Below, piece after piece: positions 1,381 to 51,626 of a stretch of DNA of 64,000 nucleotides. Made by a program: the position numbers and the translations under genes. The notes under the pieces were generated by a model that saw only the letters and a list, made by a program, of their open reading frames with translations, was not told the DNA's origin and ran no database searches. Positions within the stretch are counted from its first letter, which is position 1. Every line of letters begins with the position of its first letter. This DNA comes from an uncultured Gammaproteobacteria bacterium (GTDB lineage Bacteria; Patescibacteriota; Patescibacteriia; Magasanikbacterales; UBA922), in assembly GCA_964394405.1 (NCBI GenBank), contig CAYMVY010000002.1, positions 128,092-192,091 of the forward strand, read 5' to 3'.

Positions 1381-3420
1381 CTATTTCCCCGTGTATTTCC
1401 CCCACCATCGGTAAAATTCTGCTGCAATATGTGACGCGGTCCGACTTCCTTCACCACCCTCTTCAAGCATGATAGTTACCACAATCTCGGGCTTGTTGAA
1501 TGGGGCAAATGAGGTGAACCATGCATGCGTGCTTCGATTGGAATTCCATTGAGCAGTACCTGTCTTCCCTGCCACAGAAAAAGGAAGTGAACGAAGAACT
1601 CCGCATGGTCCGGTATCGATACAATCTTTCATACCGAGTTGCACTATTTCTAGATATTGTCTTCCAATAATATTTGTTTTACTTTTTTCTGGTGCGATTA
1701 TTTTTTCTGTTTTTGTTTTTGGGTCAATAGTCGAGTGTACTACATGCGGTCGATATACGGTCCCTTTGTTTGCAATAGTTGCAGTCATTGATGCAATTTG
1801 TAGCGGTGTAGTGAGGAAGTCTCCTTGACCGATTGAAAAATTATACGTATCTCCTACATACCATTCTTCTCCCTTGGTTTGTTTTTTCCATTCCGGAGTC
1901 GGGAGTAGCCCGTCGTATTCACCTGGAATATCGATACCTAGTTTAGTGCCAAATCCATATTTTCTCAAATATTCATTTATTTTGGTCACACCCAACCCTT
2001 CGAAATCTTTGTATCCCCCACCGATATAGTAATAGAATGTATTTACTGACCATGAAATTGATTTTCGCACGTCAGTAATTCCACTTCCAACTGGAGTCCA
2101 GTCTGGAAAAAATCTTCCCCCCACCGAAATACCCCCGGTACTATTTATAGTTGTTTTTGCGGTAATAATTCCTTCGGAGAGTGCTGCGGAGGCAACTGCA
2201 GGCTTGATTACTGACCCTGAAGGGTATGAGCCGCCGATCGCGCGATTAAAGAGCGGGCGATCCTCATTCGCAAGATATTCCGCATACTGTGCTGCGTCGA
2301 TGCCACCTGAAAAATCGTTATTATCAAATCCTGGCAGACTCACGAGTGCAAGCACTTCACCATTTTGTGGATTCAATACTACTCCAGATGCGCGAGTGCG
2401 ATCATTTTTTTTCAACCACTCTTTGAGTATTTCTTCCAGTTTGTCTTGCATCTTGTAATCAATTGACAACTTGATGTGATTACCTGGCGTGGGATCGATT
2501 GCAGCGAGTACTGTCTGTTCTGCGCCTTTTGCATTTACCTCAATACGCTTTTGTCCATAACTTCCTCGCATGATACCTTCGTATGACTGCTCCACCCCTG
2601 TTTTTCCAATAGAATCTGATGGTAAATATCCTTTCTCATATAGATTCTCTAGTTCTTCAGGCGAAAGTTTTCCAATATACCCGAGGATGTGAGAAAGCGA
2701 GCTTGCTTGTGACGATTTTTCTATTTTCTCAACCTCTGTCTCTGATAGGAGTTTTGTTGTGGTTGAGAGCACGATAGCTTCTGGATTTTTGGTGAGGTAT
2801 AGCCGTTTACTACCGCGCTGAATGGTAATCCCTGGAAGAGTATCTGATGCGATGAGAATTTTTAGCGCCGCGTCATAGGGAATATCTTCGGTTATGACGA
2901 TTGAGTCATGTCGGTAATTGCGGTATTTGTGGAGTACGTCCTCTATACCTTCAGCATCACTACCGGTGATCTCTGCTAACCCTTGTATTACTTTCTGTAA
3001 TTCATTTCTATCTCGCGGAAGGTCCTGGGGAATTACGGCAAGTGAGAAATTGGGAATGTTTTCGGTCAATTGTATTCCATTCCGATCATAGATGACGCCA
3101 CGTTCTGCAGGAACAGGAATAATTCTCTGTCTGTTTCCCTCTGCTTTTACCTCAAATGCGTTTCGTTCGAGAATTTGGATATATACAAGTCTTCCCATCA
3201 TTCCCAGAATAAGTATGGTTGCAATCGCTAGAAATAGAAACATTTTTCTGTCAGAAAAGCTGGTACCGATATGTGAAGTTCCGGAATGTCTGATATCCTC
3301 GCTTTGTGAAATACTTTTTGGTGTAAAGGAATTTTCAATCCATGCCAATCGGTATTTGCCATGTAGTGTATCTTTTTCTAGATCTTTTCCTGGAGTTTTT
3401 GCAAATGGGTCGATGAACAT
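1381..3420 (-). CDS. mrdA: Penicillin-binding protein 2 (peptidoglycan D,D-transpeptidase) of the elongasome
   Basis: 679 aa. N-terminal TM, PBP dimerisation domain and transpeptidase domain with the KTG motif (VAGKTGTAQ). Lies directly downstream of mreBCD. Confidence 0.85.
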   Translation of the reverse strand: MFIDPFAKTPGKDLEKDTLHGKYRLAWIENSFTPKSISQSEDIRHSGTSHIGTSFSDRKMFLFLAIATILILGMMGRLVYIQILERNAFEVKAEGNRQRIIPVPAERGVIYDRNGIQLTENIPNFSLAVIPQDLPRDRNELQKVIQGLAEITGSDAEGIEDVLHKYRNYRHDSIVITEDIPYDAALKILIASDTLPGITIQRGSKRLYLTKNPEAIVLSTTTKLLSETEVEKIEKSSQASSLSHILGYIGKLSPEELENLYEKGYLPSDSIGKTGVEQSYEGIMRGSYGQKRIEVNAKGAEQTVLAAIDPTPGNHIKLSIDYKMQDKLEEILKEWLKKNDRTRASGVVLNPQNGEVLALVSLPGFDNNDFSGGIDAAQYAEYLANEDRPLFNRAIGGSYPSGSVIKPAVASAALSEGIITAKTTINSTGGISVGGRFFPDWTPVGSGITDVRKSISWSVNTFYYYIGGGYKDFEGLGVTKINEYLRKYGFGTKLGIDIPGEYDGLLPTPEWKKQTKGEEWYVGDTYNFSIGQGDFLTTPLQIASMTATIANKGTVYRPHVVHSTIDPKTKTEKIIAPEKSKTNIIGRQYLEIVQLGMKDCIDTGPCGVLRSLPFSVAGKTGTAQWNSNRSTHAWFTSFAPFNKPEIVVTIMLEEGGEGSRTASHIAAEFYRWWGKYTGK

Positions 3421-3454
3421 ATTCTAAAAAGGCACAAGATGAATATCGCAACAG

Positions 3455-4006
3455 TTAAGAATATCGTATTCTCTCCTTTGTAACCATATTACCTACTTTG
3501 AGTAGTATTGCATAGAGCGGTATTGAGATGAGCGCGGTGGTAAGGATTTCGATACCGAATCGTTGTATTAATGAAGTAGAAATGATACTTGATTCCTCCT
3601 GTGCGAGGATACTTGCGAGAGTAGTTCCAGAGATGTAGAGCAATTTATATACCGTCATTCCGAATACCGTGAGTATGCCCGCAGTCCAGATTGAGAGATT
3701 GGTAAAAATTTCTTCAAAGAACCAGAAAACTCCGAGCACGCTGAATACCCCTGCGCACAATTGTATACCGAATGGTTGAGAAGCAAGAATATCCAGAATC
3801 ATATAGATGCTAAAAGCAAACCAGACGATTTTTCCGCGAGCACCGCGCATGATTACAATTACAAAGAATAACATGAGTATGTCAATGTAGGTAAATACTC
3901 CTGGGAGCAGATTGGTGAGAAAGAGTTTTAAAAAAATTAACCCTGCTATTAGGGTTCCATACCATAAGCCGAGTATGATTTTTTTTGCGATATTATTCTG
4001 TCGCAT
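3455..4006 (-). CDS. mreD: Rod shape-determining protein MreD-like polytopic membrane protein
   Basis: 183 aa, very hydrophobic, multi-TM. Sits between mreC and pbp2 and overlaps the mreC stop by 14 nt. Confidence 0.55.
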   Translation of the reverse strand: MRQNNIAKKIILGLWYGTLIAGLIFLKLFLTNLLPGVFTYIDILMLFFVIVIMRGARGKIVWFAFSIYMILDILASQPFGIQLCAGVFSVLGVFWFFEEIFTNLSIWTAGILTVFGMTVYKLLYISGTTLASILAQEESSIISTSLIQRFGIEILTTALISIPLYAILLKVGNMVTKERIRYS

Positions 4007-11957: not shown

Positions 11958-12476
11958 TTAGTTAATTAGAGAAATAAGTTTGGTAATCATTTTTTTGACA
12001 TCTTCAGTATACTGTTTTTCCAGATCTTCTTTAGAAAGATTTTCAACCAATCCTACGTATACACTTGGGACGACTGCTTTCATCTGCAGATACATGAATA
12101 TTGCCATCAGGTGCTCAATCATGCGAGCCCCACCGATTTTACCCGATGACACGCCGACAACCCCTACAGCTTTTCCCTCATATTCTCTATACGCCATATC
12201 AAGGAGTAATTTGAATTCTCCAGGATAACTCCGATTGTATTCTGGAATGACGAAGATGAATCCAGCAGCTCGTTTGGCGATTTCTTTCCAACGTTTTGTC
12301 TTGTCACTCTCTTCCCAGCTTGGGATAGTCCGAGGTATTTCAACAAAATCTTTGACGTCAATAAATTCAGTTTCGATATCAAATAACTGTGCAGCCGAGT
12401 GTACAAATTTTGCTACTTTTTCTGACTGTCTTCCTTCTCGTGCAGTGCCGAGAACAATTGGGATGTAGGGCTTCAT
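11958..12476 (-). CDS. NAD(P)H-dependent FMN reductase (flavodoxin-like fold)
   Basis: 172 aa. GTAREGRQSE near the N-terminus and PEYNRSYPG motifs typical of the SsuE/YieF/ArsH-like FMN reductase family. Confidence 0.75.
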   Translation of the reverse strand: MKPYIPIVLGTAREGRQSEKVAKFVHSAAQLFDIETEFIDVKDFVEIPRTIPSWEESDKTKRWKEIAKRAAGFIFVIPEYNRSYPGEFKLLLDMAYREYEGKAVGVVGVSSGKIGGARMIEHLMAIFMYLQMKAVVPSVYVGLVENLSKEDLEKQYTEDVKKMITKLISLIN

Positions 12477-12529
12477 ATACTACGTATTATATATACTAGA
12501 GTAACAGATTCGCTTATTTGAGGCAACTA

Positions 12530-12557
12530 TTGACAAAAATCAATCATCATCTATACT
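12530..12557 (+). promoter_or_regulatory. Candidate sigma70-type promoter (TTGACA-16-TATACT) facing high-GC island A
   Basis: ttgacaaaaatcaatcatcatctatact read directly. Lies in the AT-rich host-like spacer just before the GC jump. Confidence 0.3.
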
Positions 12558-12659
12558 ATAGCCCTCCTCACGCTGATTCTCTAACAGAAGAACAACAGCC
12601 ACAGCACCATGACTGAGGAGTAATGTGTGCTTTTTCTGGAGCAACTAATGGATCCGTAT

Positions 12660-13169
12660 ACCTTCACCCAGCGCACCGGTAATGCCTTCCTCGCTCTGCC
12701 CCGTGTGACTGTCTACGACTGCCACATCCCCGTCTTCTCCCGCACCTTCACCATCCTGCATCAGGATGACCTCCGCCAGCTGATCTTCATGATGGGCGTC
12801 GCGCGTGTCATCCAGACGACGGAGAAGGCGCACGAGCTCTACAGCGCGCTCGGTCTGGACATGCTCCCGAACATGGGGGCGATCGCTGAGCGTATGTCCG
12901 GCATGAGGAAGCTGAAGCCCGCGAACGGTCTCGAGTACATCATGACCGATGACTCGCCCCGTAGCATGCGTCTCCAGGGCGCCCGCCTGCCCGAGGTGCA
13001 TAGCTACCGCGATGCGTTCCTCCAGGTCCTCGGCCTCCACAAGTACGACCAGGTCTCGCCTGCGGAAGGCGTGACCCTGCTCGATCAGGTGCTCAAGGCT
13101 GATCTGCCGATGGATCAGGACATCGCCATGAAGATCGCGATCATCGCCGGCACCTTCGACTTGTTCTGA
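12660..13169 (+). CDS. Hypothetical protein of high-GC island A (169 aa from ATG 12660, or 180 aa from 12627)
   Basis: Strong GC3 bias on the plus strand. The antisense 175-aa ORF is Arg/Leu/Glu-rich, typical of a non-coding frame. GGAG sits 7 nt before ATG 12660. No recognisable domain. Confidence 0.5.
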   Translation, partial: TFTQRTGNAFLALPRVTVYDCHIPVFSRTFTILHQDDLRQLIFMMGVARVIQTTEKAHELYSALGLDMLPNMGAIAERMSGMRKLKPANGLEYIMTDDSPRSMRLQGARLPEVHSYRDAFLQVLGLHKYDQVSPAEGVTLLDQVLKADLPMDQDIAMKIAIIAGTFDLF

Positions 13170-13375
13170 CACACAAGTTTCTCTAGCCTTCCCAGGAAGG
13201 TATTGCAGGTAGAGAAGAAACTACACGACGATTGGGACGCGTGAAAACGCGTTTGGAGATTGGACGAATCCTGCTTCGTCCTTCCTACTACTATCTTTAA
13301 TTATTAGAGGTAATTGAGGAATAAAAAGCCGCTTATGGGCGGTCTTTTTGTTTTTGTCAGTTTTACCCTCTAACC

Positions 13376-13404
13376 TTGACAAAAGGGCTTAATTGTGCTA
13401 TACT
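13376..13404 (+). promoter_or_regulatory. Strong consensus sigma70-like promoter TTGACA-17-TATACT inside island A
   Basis: ttgacaaaagggcttaattgtgctatact. A structured GC-rich leader and two small ORFs follow. Confidence 0.4.
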
Positions 13405-13513
13405 GAGCTGTTTCCGTATCTAACCGCAGGTTGTAGAGGTCGTACCTCATTGAAGTACCCCCTCTACAGCGCTACGGAATGGATCCGTCGCTGAGACCCC
13501 TTGGAGAGGACAA

Positions 13514-13642
13514 ATGAAGAAGTATCTCATTGCCGCTGGACTGACGATCGGACTCACCTTGATGGTGGTCCGCGTGGTCACCTGGGTCGTTAACGAGGCC
13601 CCGGTCGTTCCGGAGCGGCACCAGTTCGTGTACGACCCGTGA
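13514..13642 (+). CDS. Small hydrophobic peptide (42 aa) MKKYLIAAGLTIGLTLMVVRVVTWVVNEAPVVPERHQFVYDP
   Basis: GGAGAGG SD 6 nt upstream of the ATG. Single TM helix plus charged tail. Inside high-GC island A. Not in the ORF track (under 60 aa). Confidence 0.35.
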   Translation: MKKYLIAAGLTIGLTLMVVRVVTWVVNEAPVVPERHQFVYDP

Positions 13643-13658
13643 ACATCGGGACGTGCAA

Positions 13659-13730
13659 CATGCTCGGCAGCGCGTCGGTCATCGCTATCGTGGTGGTCAT
13701 CGTGGCCATCCTGAAAGCGTGCTACGCGTG
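13659..13730 (+). CDS. Very small hydrophobic peptide (23 aa) MLGSASVIAIVVVIVAILKACYA
   Basis: Begins 17 nt after the previous ORF. Entirely hydrophobic. A GC-rich hairpin (gggcggtgtcgcaagacgccgccc) follows. Confidence 0.25.
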
Positions 13731-13807
13731 AAACCTAACAACTGGGCGGTGTCGCAAGACGCCGCCCGAACCCAACTATCATTTTAAATCTTTGAAGTGA
13801 TTGAGGA

Positions 13808-13839
13808 CCCTGTACCAGAACGGTACAGGGTTTTGATTT
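13808..13839 (+). terminator. Rho-independent terminator hairpin ending island A (ccctgtacc agaac ggtacaggg + T-run)
   Basis: Perfect 9-bp stem followed by ttttgattt. Confidence 0.5.
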
Positions 13840-13844
13840 GCACA

Positions 13845-15620
13845 CTACTCAATAAACCCTCCAACTTGCGTGCCCCAGAGTTCCTGGTATATTCCTGTTT
13901 TTTTACTTACCAATGCTTTGTGAGTACCTTGTTCGACTATTTTTCCTTTGTCCACTACGATAATTCGATCCATATGCATGATAGTCGATAATCGATGCGC
14001 GATTGCAATGACTGTTCTTCCTTTTACCAATTCATGTAATGCTTCCTGGATCAACCTTTCTGATTCTGAATCAAGGCTTGAAGTAGCTTCGTCGAGTACG
14101 AGAATCGGAGCGTCCTTCAACATTGCTCGTGCCATAGCGATACGCTGACGCTCCCCACCAGATAATTTCACTCCTCGTTCCCCTACCATCGTGTCATAAC
14201 CTTGTGGAAACGACGTAATAAATTCATGGCATTGCGCACGCTTCGACGCAATAATCATTTCTTTTTCAGTAGCATCTGATCTCCCGTACATAATATTCTC
14301 TCTCACGCTACGATGAAACAATACAGGATCTTGTGGTACGTATGCAATCGCACGCCACAGACTTTCCTGGGTTACTTCGGTAATCGGAGTATTATCAATT
14401 TTGATGGCACCTTTTGAAACGTCGTAGTAGCGAAGTAGTAGTTTTACGATAGTTGACTTCCCTGCTCCTGAATGCCCGACGAGCGCTACTTTTTCTCCAG
14501 GACGTACCAAAAGTGAGAAGTCATTCAGCAATGCTTTTTTAGCATTGTATTTGAATGTCACTCGCTCGAACTTAATACTCCCTTTAGTAACTTCAAGATT
14601 AATTGCATCCTTTTTATCAGTAATCCCATGTGGCGTGTAGTAAATAGCGGCAAATTCTTTTGCATCTGCAAAATGTTCATATACATCACGAAAACTTCGT
14701 GCAAAATTCCATACACGATGAAATACTGCAAGCGAATAGCCATTTATCAGGACCAAGTCTCCAATAGTGAGTGTGCCCGCACGCCAAAACTGTAAGGCGA
14801 GATAGAGTAGTACTATTTCAAATAAAGTCATAAGTGCACCCTGTAAACCATCAAGTTTGATTGTGAGTACACGCGAAAAGAAACGTCGTGATCGTACTTC
14901 CTCTGATACGGTGTCAAAATTCTTTTCTTCTTTGAGGTATGATGAAAACAACTTTACATTTGGATAATTGGTGACAATATCAGCCAATACACCTGTTTGT
15001 TTGCTCTCGGCTTCACTTCTGAGTGCGTCAAATTTTAATTTATAGAGACTTGTGTAATATGTTGCTGCTAGGTATAGAATCAACCATCCGAACAGAAGAA
15101 GTCCAAATATATAATTGGTCATGAACAATACTACACCGATCGATAGAATTAAAAATCCTGAGCCGAATAGTGTGTATTGAAGAAAATCAATCATGATCAC
15201 CGTAAATGCGCTTTCAAATTTTCGCATGTCTGAGATAAGCGAACCAATGTATTTGTTTTCAAAAAAATTAAACGAATGACGAAGAGTGGTTTTTAACATT
15301 TCATTATATAATTTTTTTCGTACGTGCATTTCCGATCGTGCACGGAAGTAATGATGCAAGCGATCAGAAATCCAATTCATGCAGAGCAGTCCTAAAATCA
15401 AAAAAACCGCCTGCAATGCTTCGTTATATGCCATTTCTCTGGTAAACGTTTCATTCGTTAGTGCATCAATCAATAGTTTGTAGAAATATGGATATGCTAG
15501 ATCTCCTGCATTCCACAATATAATAAATATCGAAGAAACAACAAAAGACCATTTGAATGGACGTAAATATTTCCAAAATAATTGTAACACTTGCTTATTG
15601 GTAACTTCGGAGGGTTTCAT
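13845..15620 (-). CDS. ABC transporter, fused permease/ATP-binding exporter (MsbA/LmrA-like)
   Basis: 591 aa. Six-TM domain, then Walker A GHSGAGKST, ABC signature LSGGERQR and Walker B ILVLDEATS. Confidence 0.9.
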   Translation of the reverse strand: MKPSEVTNKQVLQLFWKYLRPFKWSFVVSSIFIILWNAGDLAYPYFYKLLIDALTNETFTREMAYNEALQAVFLILGLLCMNWISDRLHHYFRARSEMHVRKKLYNEMLKTTLRHSFNFFENKYIGSLISDMRKFESAFTVIMIDFLQYTLFGSGFLILSIGVVLFMTNYIFGLLLFGWLILYLAATYYTSLYKLKFDALRSEAESKQTGVLADIVTNYPNVKLFSSYLKEEKNFDTVSEEVRSRRFFSRVLTIKLDGLQGALMTLFEIVLLYLALQFWRAGTLTIGDLVLINGYSLAVFHRVWNFARSFRDVYEHFADAKEFAAIYYTPHGITDKKDAINLEVTKGSIKFERVTFKYNAKKALLNDFSLLVRPGEKVALVGHSGAGKSTIVKLLLRYYDVSKGAIKIDNTPITEVTQESLWRAIAYVPQDPVLFHRSVRENIMYGRSDATEKEMIIASKRAQCHEFITSFPQGYDTMVGERGVKLSGGERQRIAMARAMLKDAPILVLDEATSSLDSESERLIQEALHELVKGRTVIAIAHRLSTIMHMDRIIVVDKGKIVEQGTHKALVSKKTGIYQELWGTQVGGFIE

Positions 15621-30441: not shown

Positions 30442-31011
30442 TCAGTAGTCGCAAGACCCCTCCGTCCTCACGGCGATAAAACGGGTGTTGTCCTGCCATT
30501 CGTCCGTAGTCTTCATGAGCACGAGCTTGCGGGTGGCGAGCCTATCATTCATCACATCGAGGCAGGGTGTCATGGATTCCCCTTCTACCACGATGGTCAC
30601 GGTCCCGAGAGACACGATCGGTCCAGCCCAGACGTAGGATCGCGGGTATTGTTCCGCGAATGAGAGCAGATGTATGAGCTCACCTGGTTCGAGGCATCGT
30701 TCATGGATTTCGAGAAGGGCCTCCTCGGTGGTGACGCTTCGGCCGAAGTAGACGAACGTGAGGTCGACCGAGTAGATCTCATGACCTTCACTCGGGAAGT
30801 GCTCGCTCGTGAAGTACTCTTCCGATTCGACGTAGGCTCCGATCCGCTCGACCCTCTCCTCGACCTCGATGCTCTCGTCGATGTGAGTAGGACAGAACGC
30901 ACCATCCATGCAGTGGGTCATGTGAAACGGACGGAAGCTCTCGCTTTCGCACGAGATGTTCGAGAACGAAGATGTTAGAGCACATATCGCGATGAAAAGA
31001 ACTCGAGGCAT
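30442..31011 (-). CDS. Hypothetical secreted Cys-rich acidic protein of high-GC island B
   Basis: 189 aa. Signal-peptide-like MPRVLFIAICALTSSFS, six further Cys, GC3-rich codons. AGGAGAAGGAGA sits 6 nt before the ATG. Overlapping frames are Arg/Ser-rich artefacts. Confidence 0.5.
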   Translation of the reverse strand: MPRVLFIAICALTSSFSNISCESESFRPFHMTHCMDGAFCPTHIDESIEVEERVERIGAYVESEEYFTSEHFPSEGHEIYSVDLTFVYFGRSVTTEEALLEIHERCLEPGELIHLLSFAEQYPRSYVWAGPIVSLGTVTIVVEGESMTPCLDVMNDRLATRKLVLMKTTDEWQDNTRFIAVRTEGSCDY

Positions 31012-45470: not shown

Positions 45471-45572
45471 ACACAATACATTATATTATTTGTAGACTGG
45501 TTAATTAAAACACAGATTATATAGAGATGCAATGAATGTATATCTTTACAAATACACTAATTTATGATATAC

Positions 45573-45601
45573 ATCTCCTTCCTCACGACGAGGAAGGAGA
45601 T
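45573..45601 (+). promoter_or_regulatory. Perfect hairpin sequestering the Shine-Dalgarno of the island C ORF (atctccttcct cacgacg aggaaggagat)
   Basis: 10-11 bp perfect stem whose 3' arm is the AGGAAGGAG ribosome-binding site, 6 nt before ATG 45606. Confidence 0.45.
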
Positions 45602-45605
45602 GATC

Positions 45606-45941
45606 ATGGCTGTACTGAAGTTTGAAAAGTACGACAACGAAAAGGCCGCTCTCGCCGCAGAAGAGGATGCTATCGACCTGCTCATACCCCTCCAGGTAGG
45701 GAGTGCCGAAGCGGCACGACGTGGTAGTGTTCTCATCTACATCCCGAAGGATAATACGGGTGAAGGTGAATACGAGCTCGAACACGCCGAAATCATGCAT
45801 CACGACCCCAAACGGCGTACTGTACTGGTCGAGGTGCAGGACGATGGCCAGGGTCCCAATGAGAACCCGCGAGCAGGGCAGGTGGTAGAACTCCCGGACG
45901 ACACCCTCTGCTACGTCGCACCACCAGCCACCTCCGAGTAG
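45606..45941 (+). CDS. Hypothetical acidic small protein of high-GC island C (about 112 aa)
   Basis: GC3-rich codons on the plus strand. The antisense 151-aa ORF looks like an artefact. No recognisable domain. Confidence 0.45.
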   Translation: MAVLKFEKYDNEKAALAAEEDAIDLLIPLQVGSAEAARRGSVLIYIPKDNTGEGEYELEHAEIMHHDPKRRTVLVEVQDDGQGPNENPRAGQVVELPDDTLCYVAPPATSE

Positions 45942-45964
45942 CACACCATACAACTCAGGAGGTT

Positions 45965-45999
45965 GTGTCAGGTCGGAGGCTCTGCTTCCGACCTGACAC
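45965..45999 (+). terminator. GC-rich terminator of island C (tgtcaggtcggag gctctgc ttccgacctgaca)
   Basis: 13-bp near-perfect stem followed by attt-rich sequence. Confidence 0.5.
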
Positions 46000-46079
46000 A
46001 TTACACACCCCCATTTTGATCGTAATACATTTTTTAAATTTATTCAGTTGAAGGAACTTTATTTACAAAAGTATAATTA

Positions 46080-48269: not shown

Positions 48270-48809
48270 ATGATCATTAACAAAAGCCTGTCCGTCTCAG
48301 CAGTGACCAATCAGTGCGGAAAAATCAACGCAGTCTCCAGGGATGGAAAACTGCACATCACCTACACCGGCCCCACTCTCTCCCATGAGACGGTCGAAAA
48401 AGTGATCAGCGCTATGGTTACCGAGATCGACAACTCCATCCCGCAGATCCTGCAGCCTTCAGATAAAGGCAAAGTACTCGATACTCCCGAGATCCTGTGG
48501 CCAGTACTCGACATCGAGGTCAGAACGCTCCCACTCCTCCAATATGGAAACCAGTGGGAGAGTACTCGTGCGCTCAATGGCATGATGGATGCCAACATAC
48601 GATACCTCGGACAACTGGTGCAGAGGACTGAGAAGCAGATAATCACCGGCCTTCCTCGAGTAGACTGGCCACTCAAGCATTTCGGTCGCAAATGCTTGAA
48701 GGTGGTTAAAGACTGCATCTCACCCTTGGGCGTGCATTTCGGGATGGACATCCTCGGCTGGGTCCCGCCTGATGAACGCCTCATGATGCCTACCGAGCAG
48801 GACACCTAA
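48270..48809 (+). CDS. High-GC island D protein with C-terminal RNA polymerase alpha-subunit CTD-like (HhH) domain
   Basis: 179 aa. Residues about 75-170 align by eye with E. coli RpoA 250-325: ILWPV.DIEV.., IRYLGQLVQRTE vs IHYIGDLVQRTE, FGRKCLKVVKD...GVHFGM vs LGKKSLTEIKD...GLSLGM, WVPP vs WPP. The N-terminal 75 aa are unrelated to the alpha NTD. Confidence 0.55.
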   Translation: MIINKSLSVSAVTNQCGKINAVSRDGKLHITYTGPTLSHETVEKVISAMVTEIDNSIPQILQPSDKGKVLDTPEILWPVLDIEVRTLPLLQYGNQWESTRALNGMMDANIRYLGQLVQRTEKQIITGLPRVDWPLKHFGRKCLKVVKDCISPLGVHFGMDILGWVPPDERLMMPTEQDT

Positions 48810-51070: not shown

Positions 51071-51257
51071 AGTACAAAATTAAAATCTGTATATAGTATA
51101 CGATAAACGATACAAAAAGTAACATACGGTAATTTTATACACATCACCATATTTTCTCATACACTATAACGTGGTACGCTATTACCCTTCCAGGTTTTAC
51201 GGCATACTTGGGAGAGGTGCTACCGTCCACAATGCCGTCCAAGGAGAGAGTGGCCAC

Positions 51258-51626
51258 ATGGCCCACGTGTTTACGATGCTGATCGAGGGTGATAAAAACC
51301 CGAGCGAAGGTGATCTGTACCTGCTTTTCATGAAGTCTCGTGACTTCTTCGGTGAATGCGAAGCGACCTTCTACGGAAAGGATTCAAAGACTGGTCAACC
51401 GATTCAACGCTCCTGCCTCATCTCGAGTGTCGGATGGGTTCCGAAATCTATGAATAGCCTGAAAATCGAAGGCTCCTACCGCATCACTGATGAGTGCCCC
51501 TCGGTTCATATTCCGGAGTACAACCCCCTGAAGAAAACCGGCACGATGACTTACACTCTCCCCAAGCCCAACGCGGGAGAGCTGATGGAAGAGGTCCACT
51601 TTGGCCAGGAGCTGGCTGTCGCCTAA
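51258..51626 (+). CDS. Hypothetical small protein of high-GC island E (about 122 aa from MAHVFTML)
   Basis: AAGGAGAGAG SD precedes this ATG. The ORF-track GTG start at 51171 lacks an SD. GC3-rich. No domain recognised. Confidence 0.45.
   Translation: MAHVFTMLIEGDKNPSEGDLYLLFMKSRDFFGECEATFYGKDSKTGQPIQRSCLISSVGWVPKSMNSLKIEGSYRITDECPSVHIPEYNPLKKTGTMTYTLPKPNAGELMEEVHFGQELAVA

Follow-up and report, generated by a model that had tools for sequence, protein, structure and literature searches.

The stretch analyzed here covers 64,000 nt of contig CAYMVY010000002.1 (GenBank assembly GCA_964394405.1), and this whole stretch is called the window below. At positions 13376-13838, the plus strand of the window carries a complete small transcription unit encoding two very small hydrophobic peptides, pep42 and pep30. 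A preliminary description, made from the sequence alone, had compared the pair to type I toxins, membrane micro-proteins or regulatory leader peptides. The reading that we favor, at roughly even confidence, is that the unit encodes accessory membrane micro-proteins that would be constitutively expressed, free of antisense control, and carried by an autonomous cassette resembling the morons of phages. By analogy with small membrane proteins encoded by morons, their most plausible role would be envelope protection or exclusion, and a classical antisense-controlled toxin seems less likely. The elements of the unit, and the two related cassettes to which we compare it most often, are the following.

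13376-13838 (+): the peptide unit (unit 2), a complete transcription unit with promoter, leader hairpins, Shine-Dalgarno (SD) sequence, two open reading frames (ORFs), 3' hairpins and terminator.
13376-13404 (+): promoter TTGACA-17 nt-TGcTATACT, matching the consensus at 11/12 positions and having an extended TG.
13430-13470 (+): leader hairpin H1, gttgtagagg...cctctacagc, an inverted repeat (I2) with 18-nt arms that are 83% complementary.
13469-13491 (+): smaller leader hairpin H2 (GCGcuACGGA...UCCGUCGC), from the reading of the sequence and the minimum free energy fold.
13503-13509 (+): SD sequence GGAGAGG, 4 nt upstream of the ATG at 13514.
13514-13642 (+): coding sequence of pep42, 42 aa, MKKYLIAAGLTIGLTLMVVRVVTWVVNEAPVVPERHQFVYDP; an ORF with a G+C content at third codon positions (GC3) of 0.81, gene calls on L001 and L046 include it as well.
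13639-13731 (+): coding sequence of pep30, 30 aa; an ORF with a GTG start that overlaps the stop of pep42 (GTGA) and a GC3 of 0.90.
13743-13766 (+): G+C-rich 3' hairpin GGGCGGUGUC-GCAA-GACGCCGCCC, whose helix is conserved across lineages with 2 compensatory pairs.
13775-13805 (+): nearly invariant A+U-rich block CTATCATTTTAAATCTTTGAAGTGATTGAGG, 31 nt, forming a 10-bp hairpin.
13805-13838 (+): intrinsic terminator of the unit, from inverted repeat I7 and the fold, ending 7 nt from the stop codon of an ABC exporter gene at 13845.
L003, a related metagenome-assembled genome (MAG), same slot: cassette of the same type with a single peptide, MANFIGGIVFILFLVLMSRACVGLIAGPDEPETEEEDKVAVVDE.
L004, a related MAG, same slot: cassette of the same type with a single peptide, MSNFIGSVVVVLFLVLMTKACVGAIAGPDPKEEDTTIVDR.

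We take the peptide ORFs to be real genes, beyond what chance would produce, because homologous ORFs occupy the same place in relatives and evolve there under purifying selection. The peptides of L003 and L004 are 40-44 aa long. Between their genes the ratio of nonsynonymous to synonymous divergence (dN/dS) is 0.28, the differences are distributed 15/5/18 over the three codon positions, and a 12-nt indel keeps the reading frame. This comparison of sequences constitutes clear evidence for a translated and constrained product. A second copy of the region, on a short contig from another sample (L001), differs from pep42 and pep30 by 22 substitutions, yet these include 0 frameshifts or stops. All six peptides of the family have a hydrophobic window of transmembrane (TM) grade, with best 19-aa Kyte-Doolittle values of 2.05-2.59 (2.06 for pep42 and 2.55 for pep30), so that the hydrophobic character attributed to them is borne out. 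They have a common layout: a polar N terminus, about 15 hydrophobic residues, one Arg or Lys, then a second short hydrophobic stretch and a charged tail containing Pro.

Both of the peptides that had been proposed are present where the preliminary description placed them, but the second one is likelier to have 30 aa than 23 aa. The shorter form (MLGSASVIAIVVVIVAILKACYA) would start at an alternative ATG at 13660. We prefer the 30-aa form because in L001 the junction between the two genes reads ATGA and gene callers report a 30-aa product there. The N-terminal MNIG and C-terminal KAC of pep30 resemble the MxNFIG...[KR]AC of the L003 and L004 peptides, and pep30 and pep42 have in common an 18-nt in-frame repeat (D3). 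These similarities are suggestive, though only that, of two diverged paralogues of one ancestral peptide gene. The [KR]-A-C motif, inspected by eye, was also considered as part of a lipoprotein signal peptide and rejected: the L003 and L004 peptides have no positively charged N-region, the residue at -2 is not typical, and processing would leave a mature pep30 of only 3 aa. The pep42 of the window is absent from a collection of 15 billion proteins.

The signals around these ORFs agree with the strong promoter, structured 5' leader and good SD sequence that had been noted before. The promoter is the sole promoter-like match within 13300-13950, and those of L003 and L004 are identical to it in hexamers, spacing and extended TG. 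The pairing of H1 is conserved: across four homologues 95% of the cells of the helix are paired, with 3 compensatory pairs, its 5' arm being SD-like (UAGAG) and its 3' arm CU-rich (CUCUA). Hairpin H2 has a counterpart, GCGCA...UGCGC, in L003 and L004. The SD sequence reads GGGAGGG in L003 and GGAGGGG in L004, and in the ensembles of the four homologues its mean unpaired probability is 0.2-0.5, the local hairpin being weak. On the 3' side, the A+U-rich block is the same in the window, L001 and L003 and differs at 4 positions in L004. The full mRNA of unit 2 folds into a structure far more stable than those of shuffled sequences (z = -6.4).

The unit lies in a compositionally deviant island, as had been proposed. 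This island (12516-13840) has 62% GC and is GC3-rich, in a genome and window with a mean of 41% GC. Along 12600-13750 the GC content is 0.55-0.65, about 0.58 in the peptide unit, as compared with the window mean of 0.41. The GC3 of its three ORFs is equally distinct (0.81 for pep42, 0.90 for pep30 and 0.85 for ORF173, a gene of the neighboring unit that we discuss below) from the 0.29-0.45 of housekeeping genes. The island occupies the interval from an FMN reductase gene (11958-12476) to the ABC exporter gene (13845-15620), both on the minus strand, and consists of two back-to-back transcription units on the plus strand.

Within this island, the peptide ORFs are a spot of hypervariability. Between the window and L001, they accumulated 22 substitutions in 218 nt as compared with 14 in 1106 nt for the rest of the island (Fisher p = 1e-9), a density about 8-fold higher. 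For pep42, dN is 0.126 and dS 0.140; for pep30, the values are 0.081 and 0.099. This corresponds to a dN/dS of about 0.8-0.9, and the replacements are mostly of one hydrophobic residue for another. The divergence of the peptide region is about 3x the local synonymous rate (p = 0.03) and nearly neutral. The comparison with L003 reveals a mosaic, where the promoter-proximal flank and the 3' module are 93-94% identical, the ABC gene 74% and the peptide ORFs about 50%. The slot borders with 93-94% identity are 12413-12538 in the window (8677-8802 in L003) and 13772-13839 (8293-8360 in L003). Such identity, set against the 74% of the ABC genes, suggests a recent recombinational exchange across the slot. 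Either diversifying selection or the replacement of alleles by recombination would explain the hypervariability of the peptides. We rejected an origin in a diversity-generating retroelement, because the window has no second copy of the peptide region that could be a template and the substitution spectrum is not specific to adenines.

How would such a cassette work? One bicistronic mRNA would give rise to two single-pass membrane micro-proteins, pep42 and pep30 being joined by the 4-nt overlap of stop and start. The stem-loops at the 5' and 3' ends would mainly stabilize the mRNA and terminate transcription, and could possibly act as recombination handles. The peptides would be produced at a high constitutive level and inserted into the membrane of the bacterium itself, where they would be an accessory factor that varies between strains. 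This organization recalls that of morons, which have their own promoter, their own terminator and a deviant GC content; the first characterized moron product, HK97 gp15, is a small inner-membrane protein of superinfection exclusion (PMC3594210). Like them, the cassette is an independent unit of promoter, gene and terminator, of deviant base composition, inserted between unrelated genes, present or absent among close relatives, and with a small membrane protein as product. It differs from them in being chromosomal, between housekeeping genes (the atp operon and ABC exporter on one side, the FMN reductase on the other) with no recognizable prophage, and in having no homology to gp15/YebO and no viral contig that carries it. 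Searches with blastn of the island against phages and plasmids gave no match, and neither did viral contigs. Small membrane proteins of the AcrZ, KdpF, MgtS and YohP type are similar in size, in their single TM helix and in being encoded by stand-alone small genes. However, these are conserved members of the core genome or of regulons, with native codon usage, whereas the peptides of the cassette are compositionally foreign, hypervariable and restricted to a lineage.

Several points weigh against the interpretation as a moron-like accessory cassette. There are no phage genes flanking it, since the neighbors are the FMN reductase, a DUF5671 protein, the ABC exporter and the ATP synthase; hence, it does not qualify as a moron sensu stricto. 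The link between the peptides and phage exclusion would come from analogy alone. The covariation in the RNA helices is thin, as it involves four lineages only, and the similarity of the untranslated region (UTR) modules of the window and L003 may result from recent recombination rather than from selection. Furthermore, a structured mRNA (z = -6.4), a partly paired SD sequence and a TM peptide with a charged tail would equally fit the mRNA of a type I toxin.

This bicistronic cassette of small membrane peptides, previously unannotated, is the first known representative of a very small family restricted to one lineage. Its genes are strongly signaled but were missed by automatic annotation, and the family offers defined RNA elements together with a strain-level hypervariability that can be measured. 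Bacteria of the Candidate Phyla Radiation (CPR) are considered poor in classical defense and toxin-antitoxin systems, and to our knowledge their small proteins have hardly been studied. Should the arrangement be general, GC3-rich orphans packaged between a promoter and a terminator would bear on how streamlined symbionts acquire genes and put them on trial.

The resemblance to type I toxin-antitoxin systems deserves the closest attention among the alternatives. The peptides would then be membrane-depolarizing toxins, the translation of which is checked by the folding of the mRNA (the anti-SD-like arm of H1 and the SD hairpin) and by an antisense or trans-acting RNA so far unseen. We regard this as possible but rather doubtful. 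The small hydrophobic peptides and the structured leader of the preliminary comparison stand, whereas its antisense or trans-acting RNA is unsupported. Like toxins of the Fst/Ldr, Hok, TisB, Ibs and AapA1 types, the peptides stay below 50 aa and consist of a single hydrophobic helix followed by a C-terminal tail that is polar or charged. As in those systems, they are encoded in a unit of about 0.45 kb that is accessory and patchily distributed, is bounded by a promoter and a terminator of its own, and gives rise to a strongly folded mRNA in which the SD sequence may be partly occluded. The size and architecture of the peptides (one TM segment plus charged tail), the z of -6.4 and the self-contained unit of about 460 nt in a variable accessory slot fit a toxin. 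The SD sequence is partly paired in 4/4 homologues, and the invariant CUCUA arm of H1 could pair with the SD sequence of each lineage, to which it is complementary. The peptide gene was possibly duplicated in tandem (D3), and such duplications are common among type I toxins. Transcripts of the ABC gene could even provide the antisense RNA, although in the window only. This gene has no U-tract terminator of its own, the terminator of the peptide unit read in reverse (13805-13845, minus strand) has no U tract either, and the next good minus-strand terminator below the ABC gene is the bidirectional one at 13328-13352. Given the missing reverse U tract, ABC transcripts may run antisense over the whole peptide unit down to 13328-13352; neither L003 nor L004 preserves this arrangement. 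Yet, there is no sigma-70-like antisense promoter at the standard threshold in or beside the cassette on the minus strand of the window, L003 or L004. At a relaxed threshold, sites matching 8/12 positions appear only in L003 and L004, within the palindromic leader hairpin, so that none is conserved and the window has none. A non-canonical antisense promoter may exist in the cassette. The island has no complementary repeat elsewhere, and by-eye inspection for long-distance 5'-3' pairing like that of hok or AapA1 revealed no conserved complementarity. A consensus promoter followed by a strong and weakly occluded SD sequence would be hard to tolerate if the toxin were uncontrolled, and the SD sequence may be largely accessible, unlike that of known type I toxins. 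Two translationally coupled peptides on one mRNA are a further difference from these toxins, as is the lack of sequence similarity to their families. Rfam searches at the gathering threshold and, over 12450-13900, at E up to 10 gave only chance-level matches, and Pfam searches at E up to 10 with all six peptides gave only LPAM_1 and SPAR below threshold, with no Hok/Gef, Fst, Ldr, TisB or Ibs. Nothing significant was found for the three proteins of the window island in Pfam, NCBIfam, PHROGs and PADLOC; a sequence search of the PDB with the peptides gave no match, and literature searches yielded no report from Patescibacteria of type I toxins or of cassettes of this kind. Finally, the conserved 3' module, which could have been taken for a control element of a toxin, is also present in the unrelated protein cassette next to it (see below). 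Hence, we read it as a generic feature of cassettes and not as a toxin-specific control element.

The remaining explanations are less probable. The constant adjacency of the cassette to the 3' end of a gene for an exporter with ABC_membrane and ABC_tran domains, the production of two co-translated peptides, the GxxxG motif of pep42 (GLTIG) and the fast divergence between strains evoke a bacteriocin-like or cytolytic two-peptide system. Secreted by that exporter, it would act against the host or the competitors of the episymbiont. We consider this improbable, since the exporter is kept at this position in relatives lacking the peptide cassette (L002, L047 and L048), lacks a peptidase C39 domain, and is encoded convergently to the peptides, with which it is not co-transcribed. 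Moreover, neither peptide has a double-glycine leader and neither L003 nor L004 has an immunity gene. A class IIb two-peptide bacteriocin in particular was rejected for the absence of the GG leader and of the C39 domain and for the occurrence of the exporter without the cassette in relatives. Still less credible is a structured non-coding RNA in which the ORFs are incidental to the high G+C content. This would account for the better conservation of the UTR elements than of the ORFs and for the dN/dS of about 0.9 between the window and L001, and G+C-rich DNA is expected to contain long ORFs on either strand. It conflicts with the purifying selection between L003 and L004 (dN/dS of 0.28, second-position deficit of 15/5/18, in-frame indel), with a strong and correctly spaced SD sequence in every lineage, with the GC3 periodicity, and with a stop/start overlap that survives the change from GTG to ATG; there is also no match in Rfam. 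The idea that a short ORF behind a structured leader could be a regulatory leader peptide, an attenuator or a riboswitch for the adjacent gene can practically be dismissed. A terminator of its own closes the unit, the gene that follows (ABC, 13845-15620) lies on the opposite strand in convergent orientation, and the unit precedes different neighbors in L001 and L003. With no co-oriented gene downstream to be regulated, the leader-peptide and riboswitch readings fail, which refutes the leader peptide of the preliminary description. The possibility it raised of a known riboswitch as a better fold for the leader found no match in Rfam or among riboswitches.

The other half of the island is organized in a similar way, and its transcription unit has the following elements.

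12530-13352 (+): unit 1, whose promoter lies at 12530-12557 and whose 3' UTR, rich in hairpins, leads to a bidirectional terminator at 13328-13352.
12648-13169 (+): ORF173, the coding sequence of unit 1, a 173-aa orphan.

ORF173 differs from its L001 copy by 4 synonymous and 0 nonsynonymous changes (dS 0.034), indicating strict purifying selection. An exhaustive HMMER search of 1.8 billion representative proteins identified one true homologue, P0002, with 49% identity. A second candidate, P0003, proved to be a repeat-protein artifact, and the scans of genome, metagenome and viral contig collections revealed no relatives of ORF173 among the matches listed. Models of ORF173 by AlphaFold2, alone and with its homologue, had a predicted local distance difference test score (pLDDT) of 37-38 and were unusable. 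The homologue is encoded in a G+C-rich stand-alone cassette on a short contig (L044, 105-620), with no peptide cassette alongside, and the peptide cassettes of L003 and L004 are found without ORF173. Since each of the two occurs alone in these genomes, the ORF173 unit and the peptide cassette are, as judged from their distribution, independent modules. The 3' UTRs of the two units are collinear, with repeats D1 and D6 both at a spacing of 487 nt. A covariance model of the 3' UTR of unit 2 matches that of unit 1 (20 bits, E about 0.01), and a relative of the A+U-rich block sits at the end of unit 1 (13296-13320, D1).

Other repeats were observed around unit 1. A motif of about 25 nt, TTnGAGGnAA..TTGA, recurs directly before promoter 1 and before both terminators (the regions concerned are 12509-12539, 13296-13320, 13351-13373 and 13783-13807). 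On either side of the unit stand the arms of an imperfect inverted repeat of 23 nt, into which the -35 box falls (D1, I1). These bracketing repeats may be recombination handles for the insertion of cassettes, or a duplicated terminator/promoter context. The leader of ORF173 contains a mini-ORF of 4 codons (ATG ACT GAG GAG TAA, 12609-12623), and an exact 11-nt repeat, AATGGATCCGT, is found at the start of ORF173 (12647) and in the leader of unit 2 (13478).

Cassettes of the peptide type occur in at least three other lineages (L001/L046, L003 and L004). The family is small, previously undescribed and so far confined to one narrow clade. The closest named relatives of this clade are Candidatus Magasanikiibacteriota, an affinity seen in gene content (ATP synthase operon, DUF5671, UvrD-type helicase). 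The ABC exporter protein points the same way; it is 76% identical to that of L003, the closest named relative, and 95% identical to those of two closer MAGs, L002 and L004, with many further matches at about 46%. The records of L002 and L004 read 'uncultured Gammaproteobacteria bacterium'; since gene content and all other relatives point to Patescibacteria/Magasanikiibacteriota, these two are probably mislabeled. The L001 copy of the island (1461-nt contig, also L046) shares 97.3% identity with 12516-13839 of the window; from 13840 on, its right flank is wholly different. A profile search with four peptides recovered only the already known peptides of L001 and L004 among the matches listed. 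With covariance models built from the leader and the 3' UTR, neither the window nor 19 related loci gave additional copies. When metagenome contigs were scanned for the DNA pattern of the invariant 3' block, one chance match (L045) appeared; the viral scan gave none.

In relatives, the slot beside the conserved ABC exporter gene is occupied by GC3-rich orphan cassettes of other kinds, and L002, L047 and L048 have other cargo at the position of the peptide unit, or none of the peptide type. Slots on both sides of this gene hold differing G+C-rich orphan cassettes (L002/L050, the second unit of L003, and L047), with ORFs of 115-190 aa that each have a TTGACA... promoter and a terminator. They are located at 7780-8290 in L003 (minus strand of the locus), at 7780-8300 in L002, and at 2840-3900 and 5800-6300 in L047. 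One could imagine, although we think it unlikely, an undescribed gene-cassette system of CPR bacteria that works without an integrase and in which the peptide unit is one cargo. Fixed slots on both sides of the ABC exporter gene would hold GC3-rich orphan genes, each between a common promoter module (TTGACAAAA...) and a common 3' hairpin/terminator module. The conserved ends would be recombination handles for swapping cargo between strains, and the membrane peptides a cargo under diversifying selection, e.g., in conflicts between the episymbiont and phages or its host cell.

GC3-rich ORFs of 150-190 aa occur at five places dispersed over the window, with a GC3 of 0.64-0.85 as compared with 0.29-0.45 for the other genes. 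They are located at 12648-13169 (+), 30442-31011 (-), 45546-46001 (-) or 45564-45941 (+), 48270-48809 (+) and 51171-51626 (+). They are mutually unrelated and match no Pfam family significantly; the one at 48270-48809 has a weak match to the C-terminal domain of the RNA polymerase alpha subunit. At least three of the five have their own TTGACA-type promoter and hairpin terminator, and their composition and signals suggest foreign orphan cassettes, similar to morons, that would form a class spread over the whole genome.

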